From: an uncultured bacterium
Lineage (GTDB): Bacteria > Patescibacteriota > JACMRA01
Length of the DNA stretch: 64,000 bases
Assembly (NCBI GenBank): GCA_963784355.1
Contig: CAWAQU010000012.1
Location: 32,001-96,000 of the forward strand
Direction: 5' to 3'
Shown here: piece by piece, positions 30,995 to 42,262 of the stretch
Layout of the letters: every line of letters starts with the position of its first letter
Numbering within the stretch: the first letter of the stretch is position 1
The notes under the pieces: model-generated
What the model was told of the DNA's origin: nothing
Database searches by the model: none
The model's input: the letters and a program-made list of their open reading frames with translations, nothing else
Position numbers and translations under genes: made by a program

Positions 30995-32134
30995 TTAAAT
31001 CTTATACTCATCAATCAGATACATTTTTCCGGACTCTAGCGTGGTTAATCTATCCAAAGCTTTAGTTGTAGTTTGAGGCAGACCCAGCATGTTACCAAGA
31101 GTATTTTTTCCTCCTAAAATGCTATCAACAAAATTTGGTTCGGTTTTAATTTCAACTAGGCTATAATCACTGCCTAAATTCGCATTTGAGGCTGCCTTAT
31201 CTGCAGCTTTGCCAATATCTCCAAGTTCATCAATTAATCCCAAATTTTTAGCTTCATCATTAGGGTAGGTAAATCCTGTAGCAAAAGTTTTTACTTTATC
31301 CTTTGGAACTTTTCTGGCGGCCGAAACAATATTTAAAAATCTATCATAGCTCTTATCTACTTGAGCTTGAATATGGGCTACTTCATCAGGCGTCATGTCT
31401 CTAAAAGGGTTACCGATATCTTTATTTTGAGCTGATTTTATCACAGTTTGGCTGTAACCGATTTTTTCTGCAGTACCTTTAAAATTTGGGATTGAAATAT
31501 ATACTCCAATACTTCCGGTTTCGCCATAATTAGAACCAATTACATAGTTTTCAGTATTTTTATAACTAGCCCACAACCCTCCACTAGCAACCAATTGATC
31601 AAAATAAAACACAGCTTGTTTTTGGTTCTTATTTCTCAAAAGATCTGCAATCAAATCACCTAAAATCTCACTGGCATATTCCTCACCTCCGGGGGTATTA
31701 AATCTAAAAACTACATTCTTAATATTATTATCTTTCTTAATTTCTTCAAAATCTTTAGCAACTATATCAGTGTAAATCCCTAGATTGCGGCTGCTGTCAG
31801 GCAATCCTTTTCCTCCGGTAGTTATCATTCCCTGCAAGTCATAGACTAAGACGGTTTTATCGCTAGGTCCATTTTTAATATAGCTTGTTTGAAAACTTTT
31901 AGTATCCTCAGACTTTTTATTATTAAGTCCTGCCAAACCGAATATCAGGCCTATAACCAGTAAAATTGTAGCAATAGTCCAGATTAAACTCATTATAAAA
32001 CCCGGTAATGATAAGATAATATATGCCCAAAGAAAACCTCCTAATTTAGGATATAGCTCTACCTTCTGTTTTACATTTGGATTCGTTGGTTGGTATCTAT
32101 TGTAGATTCTGTCGTTTGGTATGTCATTATTCAT
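30995..32134 (-). CDS. sppA: Signal peptide peptidase SppA (S49)
   Basis: 'FNTPGG', 'VASGG', 'TGSIGV', 'GLIDELG'. Confidence 0.88.
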   Translation of the reverse strand: MNNDIPNDRIYNRYQPTNPNVKQKVELYPKLGGFLWAYIILSLPGFIMSLIWTIATILLVIGLIFGLAGLNNKKSEDTKSFQTSYIKNGPSDKTVLVYDLQGMITTGGKGLPDSSRNLGIYTDIVAKDFEEIKKDNNIKNVVFRFNTPGGEEYASEILGDLIADLLRNKNQKQAVFYFDQLVASGGLWASYKNTENYVIGSNYGETGSIGVYISIPNFKGTAEKIGYSQTVIKSAQNKDIGNPFRDMTPDEVAHIQAQVDKSYDRFLNIVSAARKVPKDKVKTFATGFTYPNDEAKNLGLIDELGDIGKAADKAASNANLGSDYSLVEIKTEPNFVDSILGGKNTLGNMLGLPQTTTKALDRLTTLESGKMYLIDEYKI

Positions 32135-39377: not shown

Positions 39378-40490
39378 GTGAATTTACTGACATCTCTATA
39401 TTTGGAAGCAGCCAAAATCTTAAGTTATACAGCTCTATCTTTTTTGATAGCTATGTGGTGGGCGCCTAGCCTGATTAGCTTGTTAAAATGGTTGAAATTT
39501 TGGAAAAAGAAAAGTAGGGAAATTGCTACAACGGGTGAAAAATTCGAAGTTACCAAAAGTTTTTATGCACAAGATGAGGCCAAATTGCAAGTGCCTAGGG
39601 CAGGGGGCCTTTTAATATGGATAACTACTCTCAGTTTTGCCACATTTTTTTGGATTGTTTTAAAAATAGAACCAAATAGTAAATTTAGTCAGTTTTTAAA
39701 TTTTGTATCAAGAAAAGAAACATTTATACCACTAGGAACACTTTTTTTTGGATCAATTGTAGGGTTTATTGATGATGCGTTAGCTACTCTTGAAAATGGA
39801 GGAAACTACAAGGCAGGCGGGTTAAAGCTGAGTCATAGAGTAATTTTGGTCTGTATTTTAAGTTTATTAATTGGATTTTGGTTCTTTTTAAAGCTGAATT
39901 TAAATGATATTACTTTAATCCCGGGGTATTTAAATTTAACACATTTACAAATTCCCGGTGTTACAACAAATTGGGTTGTGATACCTGCTGTAGTTATTGT
40001 TTTGTTATCACTTTGGAGTAGTTCTGTTATTGATGGCTTCGATGGTTTGGCTACAGGTACTTTTATTCCAATTTATCTCTGTTTTGCGGGTATTGCCTTT
40101 GCAAGAGGCTTTTATGATATCTCAACTCTCTTAATGGTAATGGTTGGAGCGATGACTGCCTATTTATGGTACAATATACCTCCAGCTAGATTTATTATGG
40201 GGGAGACAGGGAGTATGGGAATACTGTTGATGCTAGGTGTAGTGGCTTTTCTAATAGATGCGGTATATATTATACCGATTGCAGGACTTATGCTTGTACT
40301 TACTTCTGCTTCAGACGTAATCCAGATTTTCTCTAAAAAAGTATTCAAAAGAAAAGTATTTTTGGCTGCTCCGCTGCATCACCACTTAGAGGCTATTGGT
40401 TGGCAAAGAAATCAGATTACTATGAGGTATTGGTTAGTTTCTCTAATGTGCTCTGTACTTGGTTTAGCTGTAGGGTTATTAGTTAGGTAA
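39378..40490 (+). CDS. mraY: Phospho-N-acetylmuramoyl-pentapeptide transferase
   Basis: 'VPRAGG', 'GFIDD', 'DGFDGL', 'MGETGS', 'APLHHHLE'. Confidence 0.92.
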   Translation: MNLLTSLYLEAAKILSYTALSFLIAMWWAPSLISLLKWLKFWKKKSREIATTGEKFEVTKSFYAQDEAKLQVPRAGGLLIWITTLSFATFFWIVLKIEPNSKFSQFLNFVSRKETFIPLGTLFFGSIVGFIDDALATLENGGNYKAGGLKLSHRVILVCILSLLIGFWFFLKLNLNDITLIPGYLNLTHLQIPGVTTNWVVIPAVVIVLLSLWSSSVIDGFDGLATGTFIPIYLCFAGIAFARGFYDISTLLMVMVGAMTAYLWYNIPPARFIMGETGSMGILLMLGVVAFLIDAVYIIPIAGLMLVLTSASDVIQIFSKKVFKRKVFLAAPLHHHLEAIGWQRNQITMRYWLVSLMCSVLGLAVGLLVR

Positions 40491-40759
40491 TAATATAAGC
40501 TAGGCGTCCTTATATTAAAAATAGAGTAATCTGTATTATTACTGTATTGCGATAAAATAATCAGTGTTTGATTCAGTGAACTAGAGTGTGATTTAGTTAA
40601 TAATAAAAACAGTCCTTCAATAATCAGATTTTACAATTTTGAAACACATTTTCTAAGATTAATTTGAATATAAATTACAAGTTTTTCACTTTTATTAAAA
40701 TAATTATAGTCATTTAGTATAGATAATTACTAAGCTAAAAGTTTTCCTTATAATATTTC

Positions 40760-40788
40760 TTGACAAATCTAATTTTTTTCTATATAAT
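40760..40788 (+). promoter_or_regulatory. Perfect-consensus sigma70 promoter
   Basis: TTGACA (40760-65), 17-nt spacer, TATAAT (40783-88). Confidence 0.85.
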
Positions 40789-40793
40789 ATAAC

Positions 40794-41129
40794 TAATCTA
40801 AAACAGATTAATTTTACAGCTACCTTAGAACCCGGCAGGGAAAAACAAAAGCTACTATCAACACAATGGTGACTTCTGTTTCTGCCTGTACCTTAGTAAT
40901 AATCGGTGTTTGCTGAAACATTGGTATTACAAAAACAAAAATATAATAACACAAAAACATAAAAATTTTAACAAAAACAAAACCAACTTAAAAACAAAAA
41001 TACAAAAATTATTTAATGGGTCTGGGTAGAAAAAAATCAGCCGAAGTTAGTGTTAAAAAACTAACCCGTATCTCGAGGGTAACTGCCTGTACTTGTTTAA
41101 AACTTTTGGGGCTTAGTTACCCTTTTTTT
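40794..41129 (+). ncRNA. Candidate structured non-coding RNA of unknown family
   Basis: Lies between a perfect promoter and a terminator; several helices with G-U pairs; G-free A-rich internal loop; no downstream same-strand gene. Confidence 0.6.
41076..41129 (+). terminator. Intrinsic terminator 1
   Basis: AGGGTAACT (41076-84) pairs with AGTTACCCT (41115-23), then a T run to 41129. Confidence 0.65.
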
Positions 41130-41188
41130 GTTGCCCAAATAATTTAAAATTAAACCCAATTAGTACATTTTTAGACAAATTTTATATT

Positions 41189-41214
41189 CTCCACCTAGCG
41201 TGGAGTATTTTTTT
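41189..41214 (+). terminator. Intrinsic terminator 2
   Basis: CTCCAC-ctagc-GTGGAG followed by TATTTTTTT. Confidence 0.7.
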
Positions 41215-41374
41215 GGCTTAATTTTCTAATTTATTAACTTGCTTCACTTTTTATAAATATTTAATAAAATAAATTGCCTGCTCAAAAGGAAAATAATCTT
41301 AAATAATCTAATTTGTAGACAAGTTGTTTAGTTAATAGTTAGTAGATTTAAATGGGAGGTAGGCCCAAGGTACA

Positions 41375-42262
41375 TTAATTTGCGAAAAAACCTGTTAGAT
41401 TGCCCTCTTGTTGACCATAGACGTGATACCTATCCAAATTTAATGGATTATCAAGATTTATTTCAAAGTTACCAATTTGTTCAATTGTGGTGTAACCTGT
41501 TTTGTAACCAATTTCACGAGCAAGCTTAATTGTTTTTGAGTCAAAAGCGCCATATGGATATACAATTGTTGAAATTTCCATATTTAACTCCTTCTCTAAA
41601 AAGCTTTTGCTTTCTTTAAGCTCGGATATTATTTGCTGTTCTGATAGTCTTATTTTAGAGCCAAATTCTAAACAATTACTTGTATTTATTGCTTTACTAT
41701 TTTCGGGCTTTATAAATATCTTAAGTCTTTGACCAAATTCTAAATTGGATGATAAAGTACAGTGATTTGATGTGTGAGAATCAATGCCCATATTTCTTTT
41801 TTTGAGCACTTTGATCTGATCCAAGCTCATATAGTCAGGTTTGCCGATAGCACTTGTAATTATTGCAAAATTAGCTTTAAAATTATATTTCTCAAGAATT
41901 GGTAGAGCGGTATCAAAACTGTCAGAAAAACCATCATCGATAGTTATGATTATAGGATTATTTGGGAGAGGTTTTTGATTTTCAATATAATCCACCAAGT
42001 CTTTACTTAAAATCGGATTATAGTTTTTCTCTTTTAAATAAACCATCTGTTTCTCAAAAATTTCTGGGCCTACCTTCAAATCAAAGCTAATTTTGTTCTC
42101 GCTTTGTAGATTAGAATAACTTATATGATGATAGGTAAGAATTGGTATCCGTAGGGTTTTTCTGGATTTTTTATTAAACTGTAGAAGTAAAACTGGTACT
42201 ACAATCAGTAAGCAAATTAAGAAAATAGATAGAATTTTAGCTAACTGTAGATTTTTTTTCAT
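41375..42262 (-). CDS. Polysaccharide deacetylase (CE4)
   Basis: 'PILTYH', 'TIDDG', 'SHTSNH', 'YPYG'; N-terminal TM. Confidence 0.9.
   Translation of the reverse strand: MKKNLQLAKILSIFLICLLIVVPVLLLQFNKKSRKTLRIPILTYHHISYSNLQSENKISFDLKVGPEIFEKQMVYLKEKNYNPILSKDLVDYIENQKPLPNNPIIITIDDGFSDSFDTALPILEKYNFKANFAIITSAIGKPDYMSLDQIKVLKKRNMGIDSHTSNHCTLSSNLEFGQRLKIFIKPENSKAINTSNCLEFGSKIRLSEQQIISELKESKSFLEKELNMEISTIVYPYGAFDSKTIKLAREIGYKTGYTTIEQIGNFEINLDNPLNLDRYHVYGQQEGNLTGFFAN

Follow-up and report, generated by a model that had tools for sequence, protein, structure and literature searches.

In this study, we analysed a 64,000-nt stretch of DNA (hereafter the window) from an uncultured bacterium of the Patescibacteriota, positions 32,001 to 96,000 of contig CAWAQU010000012.1 (assembly GCA_963784355.1). 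One of its intergenic regions very probably holds a stand-alone gene for a stable, structured noncoding RNA (ncRNA) of about 335 nt, from about position 40795 to the end of a U-run at 41129. We are equally confident that this RNA, here named the A-rich-loop RNA, reveals a new, conserved and structured ncRNA family. Its characteristic features are a promoter, a helix between two distant boxes (c and d) that acts as a clamp, a hairpin (hairpin 2), an A-rich tract and a terminal hairpin; all are found at 40760-41131 of the window and again in 13 close homologs. Judging from sequence, the family had not been catalogued before and belongs to one Patescibacteria class.

The features of the locus are listed below. 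MFE refers to the minimum free energy fold of the predicted transcript.

40760-40788, + strand: sigma-70-type promoter, with TTGACA at 40760-65, a 17-nt spacer and TATAAT at 40783-88 (score 12/12)
40795-40809, + strand: 5'-terminal hairpin AAUCU/AGAUU, weak (-1.3 kcal/mol; MFE fold)
40812-40821, + strand: conserved single-stranded motif UUUUACAGCU, read in the homolog sequences
40820-40825, + strand: box a, CUACCU, which resembles box c and may pair with the GGUAG core of box d (MFE)
40834-40889, + strand: hairpin 1 (40835-40889 in the MFE fold), with box b (GGCAGGGAA, which resembles box d) on its 5' strand and box c on its 3' strand
40880-40892, + strand: box c and its 3' flank (UUCUGCC UGUACC), 5' strand of the long-range helix (covariation)
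40896-40930, + strand: hairpin 2, whose inner stem is CGGY/RCUG and whose loop is GYUGRRA-like (MFE, homolog comparison)
40925-41017, + strand: G-free A-rich tract, 93 nt, 66% A, six CAAAAA units (sequence count)
41019-41031, + strand: box d and its 5' flank (GGUCUG GGUAGAA), 3' strand of the long-range helix (covariation)
41042-41068, + strand: variable hairpin, core at 41046-41065 (MFE)
41075-41131, + strand: terminal two-tier hairpin (GGGUAAC..GCC / GGC..GUUACCC; 41075-41124 in the MFE fold) and U-run at 41123-41129 (MFE fold, covariation)
41189-41214, + strand: second intrinsic terminator, a hairpin at 41189-41205 followed by a T-run (terminator scan)
39378-40490, + strand: Glycos_transf_4/MraY-type gene, left flank of the gap
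41375-42262, - strand: polysaccharide deacetylase gene, right flank of the gap, convergent

An RNA gene with its own promoter and terminator

The RNA gene lies in an intergenic gap of 884 bp (40491-41374). Perfect TTGACA-17-TATAAT sites are rare in this organism, 10 in the 1.14-Mb genome, and the site at 40760-40788 is the only one in the window; from its position, transcription is predicted to start near 40795. Ahead of the 19 homologous RNAs, the best promoter-like site within the 640 nt before the terminator scored at least 10/12 with a 17-nt spacer in every case (12/12 in five, 11/12 in eight and 10/12 in six). The positions of these sites would imply RNAs 272-493 nt long. Downstream, the terminal hairpin and its U-run end the predicted transcript; the second terminator is possibly a back-up, or part of the region of the convergent gene.

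A first-pass annotation of the window had described a stand-alone ncRNA in a gap between convergent mraY and deacetylase genes, behind the only perfect promoter of the window and ahead of two terminators. The gap, the promoter and both terminators (41075-41129, and 41189-41205 with its T-run) were recovered, and the presence of a promoter and a terminator of its own, together with the lack of a conserved open reading frame (ORF), agrees with a stand-alone ncRNA.

Two side observations concern these signals. A (G/A)YCCAAA-like word follows the terminator U-run in 13/19 homologous RNAs (41130-41139 in the window). The YCCAAA word also trails several unrelated terminators of the genome, which gives it the look of a terminator feature common to the lineage. 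Among the other perfect TTGACA-17-TATAAT promoters of the genome (G000), those at C1:31779 (+), C3:117392 (-) and C10:31066 (-) precede short predicted transcripts whose beginning is free of ORFs, and the one predicted from C10:31066 opens with the same UUUUACAG word as the A-rich-loop RNA.

Covariation in the terminal hairpin and in a long-range helix

The RNA at 40795-41130 folds at -70.7 kcal/mol (z -3.27), a value reached by none of 100 dinucleotide shuffles, and the fold of the opposite strand was not better than its shuffles (z -1.48). Comparison with homologs, whose detection is described below, indicates which parts of this fold are conserved. The terminal hairpin has good support. In an alignment of 18 sequences that was itself fitted to the covariance model, 12 of its 14 pairs showed compensatory changes, and 91.7% of the cells were paired, versus 41-56% when the strands were slid against each other; 0/500 shuffles reached the observed values. 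A MAFFT alignment of eight sequences gave compensatory changes in 8/14 pairs. The terminal hairpin is both an intrinsic terminator and a conserved structural domain.

The second element is a helix between box c and box d, which lie on either side of hairpin 2 and the A-rich tract. Thirteen sequences were anchored on the two cores, of which that of c is invariant in all but one sequence and that of d in all but two; GGUAGAA of box d is invariant in 11/13 close homologs. We compared the 3' flank of c with the 5' flank of d over seven columns, i.e. the six positions of the helix and the next one. In register, 79/91 cells were paired, versus 15-47/91 when slid by 1-3 nt, and each column contained three to seven pair types. 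When the whole 13-bp helix was examined in a MAFFT alignment of 11 sequences, 97.0% of 134 cells were paired versus 31-50% when slid, four of the 13 pairs showed compensatory change, and neither the covariation score nor the count of doubly changed cells was reached in any of 500 shuffles. Compensatory changes are therefore seen both in the terminal hairpin and in the c:d helix.

The remaining hairpins are conserved to different extents. The inner stem of hairpin 2 showed compensatory change in 3/5 pairs, and its outer stems vary in sequence with pairing kept in 13/13 homologs. A hairpin is also predicted at the position of hairpin 1 in homologs, where the R of box c pairs with C of box b in some of them and with U in others. 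The variable hairpin at 41042-41068 is kept, with differences in sequence and length. At the 5' end, a hairpin beginning at nt 1-3 with a dG of -1.3 or lower was found in 11/19 homologs, and a (U/A)(U/A)ACAG-type motif within the first 110 nt in 11/19 as well. A pseudoknot joining ACAGCU to the loop of hairpin 2 was considered and dropped: by eye it gave 3-5 pairs only, and these were inconsistent among homologs.

Four boxes thus recur along the RNA, two of them UUCURCC-like (a and c) and two GGYAGAA-like (b and d). Given the likeness of a to c and of b to d, covariation cannot assign the pairing of the box cores. Thermodynamic folding favours a:d together with hairpin 1 (b:c), an arrangement that was clean in 6/13 sequences; d:c was obtained in one, and the rest were mixed. 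Forcing a continuous c:d helix costs 0-18.8 kcal/mol over the MFE. One reading of the models is a three-way junction, in which a pairs with the core of d, hairpin 1 forms, and the flank of c pairs with the flank of d. The other reading is that boxes a-d form two alternative folds. In the models of both, hairpin 2 and the A-rich tract are clamped alike.

These results modify the structure first proposed for the RNA. Its 5' hairpin, hairpins 1 and 2 and the hairpin at 41046-65 all reappear in the MFE fold. Its long-range helix, drawn between 40820-33 and 41018-29, is also present in the MFE fold of this sequence, but of such an a:d helix only the CTACC:GGTAG core may form. The extension of its 5' strand (40827-33) paired in register in only 19/42 cells among seven homologs and finds no support there; covariation favours the pairing of 40880-40892 with 41019-41031 instead.

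A long tract without G

The A-rich tract is predicted to be unpaired from about 40931 onwards. Its 93 nt are the longest G-free run of the window, the next being 62 nt long, and tie for the longest of the genome. A run of this length is expected 1.5e-4 times per window if nucleotides are independent and identically distributed. G makes up 17.7% of the genome. Lacking G, the tract can form only A-U pairs, and it cannot contain AUG, GUG or UUG. In all 13 close homologs, hairpin 2 is followed by a homologous tract of 47-88 nt with 0-4 G and 48-74% A, and CAAAAA is present in 18 of the 19 homologous RNAs; the sequence of the tract is not alignable in register among them. A Rho-binding site appears unlikely, the tract having only about 13% C and, by eye, few YC dimers. 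The count of six CAAAAA units in 93 nt without G, reported in the first-pass annotation, is exact, and the unpaired A-rich tract that it envisaged is found as a predicted feature in 13/13 close homologs.

Repeats were seen at a separate locus, L006 (G009:C15) 1385-1632. Downstream of a TTGACA promoter-like site, G-free tandem AACAAAAA-type repeats cover at least 198 nt there and reach the contig end. They could represent an enlarged form of the A-rich tract, or else a repeat unrelated to it at which the assembly broke.

Absence of a conserved reading frame and of known RNA families

One 39-codon open frame spans the A-rich tract in G000, and the ATG at 41016 opens a frame of 43 codons. No reading frame was conserved when frames were compared among the homologs: across the tract, each of the three frames of the same-genus homolog is closed by a stop within 21 codons, and the frames that open at box d vary in phase and length. 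For lack of conservation we rejected as coding signals the frame through the tract, the frame that begins within box d at ATG or TTG, and, in hairpin 2 of one homolog (G013), an AGGAGG resembling a Shine-Dalgarno site.

At gathering scores, Rfam 15 identified two tRNAs alone in the whole window. A cmscan of 40450-41400 at E<=10 gave four noise-level matches only, the best with 19.3 bits versus a cut-off of 51.4. No tmRNA (RF00023) was found in the window by ARAGORN or cmscan, and RNase P RNA (RF00010) had no match there; the genome encodes both elsewhere, at C1:923-1386 (62.4 bits) and C9:19452-19796 (143.9 bits), respectively. Signal recognition particle (SRP) RNA (RF00169 / RF01854) and 6S RNA (RF00013) matched neither 40450-41400 at E<=10 nor any place in the genome. 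The predicted folds of the 19 homologs have separate 5' and 3' hairpins and not the paired ends of 6S RNA. CrcZ (RF01675) scored 10.6 bits versus a gathering score of 95. Reverse transcriptase (PF00078, RVT_1) gave no match in the genome, which is 81% complete; for a template RNA of the retron, diversity-generating retroelement (DGR) or telomerase-like type, no reverse transcriptase is thus at hand, and the neighbours are MraY and a deacetylase.

Hence the first-pass annotation was right to set the RNA apart from tmRNA and RNase P RNA and to find no hallmark of SRP RNA in it, and its view of a possibly undescribed ncRNA agrees with the Rfam search, in which no family matched. Its suggestion that the tract is a template has lost support in a genome with no detectable reverse transcriptase. 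In the literature on noncoding or small RNAs of the candidate phyla radiation (CPR)/Patescibacteria, supplementary material not covered, we found no account of such an RNA; passages of PMC10768705 deal with host genes.

Distribution of the family and its genomic neighbours

The class of the organism coincides with its order, and both comprise the same 27 genomes. BLAST against 61 genomes gave one clear homolog, 69% identical over 263 nt and belonging to the same genus; outside the A-rich tract, only this copy aligned. The BLAST matches inspected in other families (L007, L009, L010, L011, L014 and L019) were dropped as low-complexity or coding. We then used covariance models of the 3' domain, R1 built from two sequences and R2 from eight. 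At E<=0.01, R2 gave 18 places in 15 of the 27 class genomes, of which 17 were true; the match G008:C54 (L057) was dropped, being coding sequence. G011 has the same architecture and was found by BLAST and inspection, as R2 misses it at this threshold. With G011, the RNA is present in 16/27 class genomes, belonging to 11/19 genera. A further model, R3, made of box c and hairpin 2, added no genome beyond its training set; it gave a weak extra match on another G011 contig (E 0.013).

Among 151 phylum genomes sampled, two from outside the class gave R2 matches, G060 and, with a match left unassigned, G138 (L058). The G060 RNA shares the layout of the family. Its order comprises four genomes, and the other three carry the RNA as well, at 72-87% identity and with (CAAAAA)3 invariant. 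It has no Rfam match, and we consider it a probable sister family. In this second order (L059 1501-1941 (-), L086, L087 and L088), the RNA is about 440 nt long, with long invariant stretches and optional inserted hairpins. Within the class, two genomes carry two copies each, G025 (L048, L055) and G026 (L052, L056). The G026 copies are about 470 nt long and contain an inserted domain in which a UUCUUUCC segment is followed, about 25 nt downstream, by a GGUAGAA box; by eye, the two could form a third UUCURCC/GGYAGAA helix.

The neighbours of the RNA are not conserved: 30 flanking ORFs include UvrD, glyoxalase, SSB, FKBP, MscL, ParB and Fpg. Only cell-wall genes recur. In the close relative L065, mraY lies 1.2 kb upstream of the RNA on the same strand, and three g15 genomes (a genus of the class) have a Mur ligase gene upstream in divergent orientation. 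In the same-genus genome G001 (L002 491-1176 (-)), a PIN-domain gene (E 1.3e-13) is found directly upstream of the RNA gene and is overlapped over 4 nt by a 90-codon ORF; the two are likely a toxin-antitoxin pair.

Some results count against a conserved ncRNA family defined in this way. The abundance, ends and processing of the transcript are inferred from sequence. The threshold of 10/12 used for the promoters of the homologs was not calibrated against shuffles, and sites scoring 9/12 are about as frequent as in shuffled sequence. Two whole-structure measures out of five lay within the shuffles for the c:d helix (both-side changes 76/500, further pair types 345/500). Neither R2 nor R3 detected the RNA in 11 of the 27 class genomes.

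Translation leaders and apparent absence of SRP

We analysed the leaders of 647 long ORFs, with the start of each placed at its first ATG. A Shine-Dalgarno (SD) core was present at -20..-4 in 30 of these genes (5%), below the background of 7.5%, and on this basis the organism makes no use of SD sites. The 3' end of its 16S rRNA (G000:C12:30338-30400, 1.6 kb before the window) still carries CACCUCCUU. Leaders are 40-50% A and 8-12% G, with U at -1 in 72%. The word CAAAAACAAAAA has seven copies in the genome, and three of the six outside the RNA end 0-2 nt before an ATG. The starts concerned, at G000:C1:39638, C5:8744 (-) and C8:57602, belong to three large proteins, one 321 aa long and the others of 1000 aa or more, all of which have hydrophobic N-termini resembling signal peptides. 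Among all genes with a hydrophobic N-terminus, the G-free run of the leader was 12.4 versus 10.0 nt (p 0.008), and the CAAAA count gave p 0.11; genome-wide, the link to leaders of exported proteins is weak.

Among candidate partners, a bS1 homolog is present in the genome (E 1e-35). Hfq gave no match at E<=10 in this genome (phmmer with E. coli Hfq), and its PF17209 domain was found in 0/41 related genomes. A genome search for the box pair, considered as a mimic of an rRNA site, gave nothing notable.

A separate observation is that the SRP seems to be missing from this lineage. In G000, Ffh gave no match with PF02978, PF00448, TIGR00959, a motif search or phmmer with E. coli Ffh (E<=10), and four control proteins were matched by phmmer in the same genome, which has no N-runs (masked stretches). 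FtsY was found neither in G000 nor in five closed or nearly closed genomes (0/5). The SRP54 domain on its own was over cut-off in 0/41 relatives, Ffh in 0/151 genomes of the phylum, and SRP RNA was found in 0/41 genomes. We found no statement in the literature of such an absence. The absence may be real biology or, for genomes beyond G000, a blind spot of the search tools.

Possible functions

The anatomy described above suggests how the RNA might work. It would fold into the 5' hairpin, the UUUACAGCU motif, boxes a-d, hairpin 1 (b:c) and the c:d helix, and would end in the two-tier hairpin. The long-range c:d helix would clamp a domain made of hairpin 2 and of 50-90 nt of unstructured, A-rich, G-depleted RNA. 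Since leaders in this organism lack SD sites and are A-rich, and since CAAAAACAAAAA precedes three starts, the tract may be displayed as a mimic of a translation leader that is free of start codons. As a decoy or sponge, the RNA could then capture the factor that binds such leaders, be it the 30S subunit via bS1 or a regulator that binds single-stranded RNA. The same leader features lend indirect support to the earlier idea of a sponge or ribosome landing pad. We put forward decoy activity by leader mimicry tentatively, as a possibility that falls short of being probable. A more specific proposal, in which the RNA is the ribosome's counterpart of 6S RNA and holds 30S subunits (via bS1) or a leader-binding factor in reserve, is rather doubtful; if true, the RNA would set global or secretome-specific translation. 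An even bolder version would give it a role in handling the mRNAs of exported proteins, because SRP is apparently missing and CAAAAACAAAAA lies ahead of three large proteins whose N-termini resemble signal peptides.

Leader mimicry faces several difficulties. CAAAA-type words are only 1.4-2.5x enriched in leaders, as are other A/T-rich words, so that the resemblance of the tract to leaders is largely compositional. The number of CAAAAA copies varies from 0 to 6 among homologs. A simple sponge does not account for the invariant a/b/c/d boxes, and no conserved neighbour gene points to a partner.

The boxes are the starting point of two other explanations. The RNA could be a ribonucleoprotein scaffold, in which the repeated UUCURCC/GGYAGAA helix binds a sequence-specific double-stranded RNA-binding protein and the tract is a linker or a second site. 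The invariance of the box cores across genera while their flanks covary would be expected in this case, as would the presence of the helix two or three times per RNA (the third copy being the possible one seen by eye in the G026 insert), and the conserved two-tier shape of the terminal hairpin exceeds what a terminator needs. However, no candidate protein was found, the neighbours are not conserved, no comparable placement of the box pair was found in the rest of the genome, and complementarity of each box to two partners could also explain their invariance. We therefore regard a scaffold as unlikely. That last argument is also the one that favours a conformational switch between a:d plus b:c, on one side, and a:b plus a continuous 13-bp c:d helix, on the other, which would sense a signal or order cotranscriptional folding. 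Sequences with two partners are expected to be invariant, a and c as well as b and d are look-alikes in most homologs, in G008 both a and c can form 13-14 bp with box d, and the cost of forcing c:d relative to the MFE ranges from 0 to 18.8 kcal/mol. Yet both folds clamp the tract alike, there is no ligand pocket, downstream gene or expression platform, and in G016 the strands are tandem and not overlapping, so that a switch appears improbable.

The tract itself could also pair in trans with U-rich RNA, such as terminator tails or leaders, and alter its stability or translation. It is long, predicted to be accessible and conserved in composition, and its complement, UUUUUG repeats, resembles the U-tails of terminators in this lineage. 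Pairing by A-U alone is weak, however; the tract is not conserved in register, as a defined seed would need to be, and Hfq was not found in the genome nor in any of the 41 relatives. Taken together, this makes a trans-acting RNA quite unlikely. A very divergent housekeeping RNA, such as 6S or SRP RNA, might escape the Rfam models, which detect neither in the genome, and a consensus promoter is typical of stable RNAs. But the locus matches neither family even at E<=10, its two ends do not come together in one long irregular hairpin around a central bubble, the shape of 6S RNA, and an SRP RNA would have no partner where Ffh and FtsY are not found, so we give this explanation a very low probability. 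Lower still is that of an mRNA or leader for a small protein, or of a template for reverse transcription. The frames of 39 and 43 codons that would speak for a small protein exist in this genome alone and are not conserved, the same-genus homolog being stopped in all three frames; the downstream gene is convergent, and no RVT_1 reverse transcriptase was found in the genome, which is 81% complete.

Whatever its function, the A-rich-loop RNA adds to a poorly charted field. A large part of bacterial diversity belongs to the Patescibacteria (CPR), and to our knowledge almost nothing is known of RNA-based regulation in them. The present finding supplies an RNA family supported by covariation, with a testable anatomy, i.e. 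a clamped, A-rich single strand free of start codons, and links it hypothetically to SD-independent translation initiation. Its a/b/c/d boxes are an unusually clear case of conserved alternative pairing. If decoy activity by leader mimicry is true, the RNA would represent a novel class of regulator that acts on translation globally; otherwise, a well-defined orphan RNA family would still stand.

Comparison with known systems

The closest parallels to the proposed decoy are found in Pseudomonas, where CrcZ and CrcY, two strongly expressed and terminator-bounded RNAs with unpaired AAnAAnAA-type motifs, act as sponges of Hfq-Crc. CrcZ titrates a factor that otherwise binds A-rich sites at translation starts. 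The (CAAAAA)n of the A-rich-loop RNA fits the AAnAAnAA pattern, with six units in the predicted unpaired tract. Its motifs are however gathered in one long clamped loop, whereas those of CrcZ are distributed over several loops; the Pseudomonas RNAs have no counterpart to the a/b/c/d boxes nor to the two-tier terminal hairpin, and Hfq was not found in the genome that encodes the A-rich-loop RNA or in 41 relatives.

The likeness to 6S RNA is conceptual: 6S RNA mimics an open promoter, and the A-rich-loop RNA would mimic a translation leader. It differs in lacking the single long hairpin with its central bubble and any Rfam match, and in place of RNA polymerase it would have the ribosome or a protein that binds leaders as its partner. 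As in tmRNA, an unstructured mRNA-like segment is enclosed between helices, but the tRNA-like domain and a conserved reading frame are absent. With OLE, ROOL, GOLLD and raiA, the A-rich-loop RNA shares a distribution restricted to a clade, structures supported by covariation, a promoter and a terminator of its own and an orphan function; it matches none of their models, is smaller, and has the G-free A-rich loop as its hallmark. By analogy, we propose that this RNA, which by the searches above belongs to none of the CrcZ, 6S, tmRNA, RNase P RNA and SRP RNA families, would work most like decoys of the CrcZ, CsrB or 6S type.

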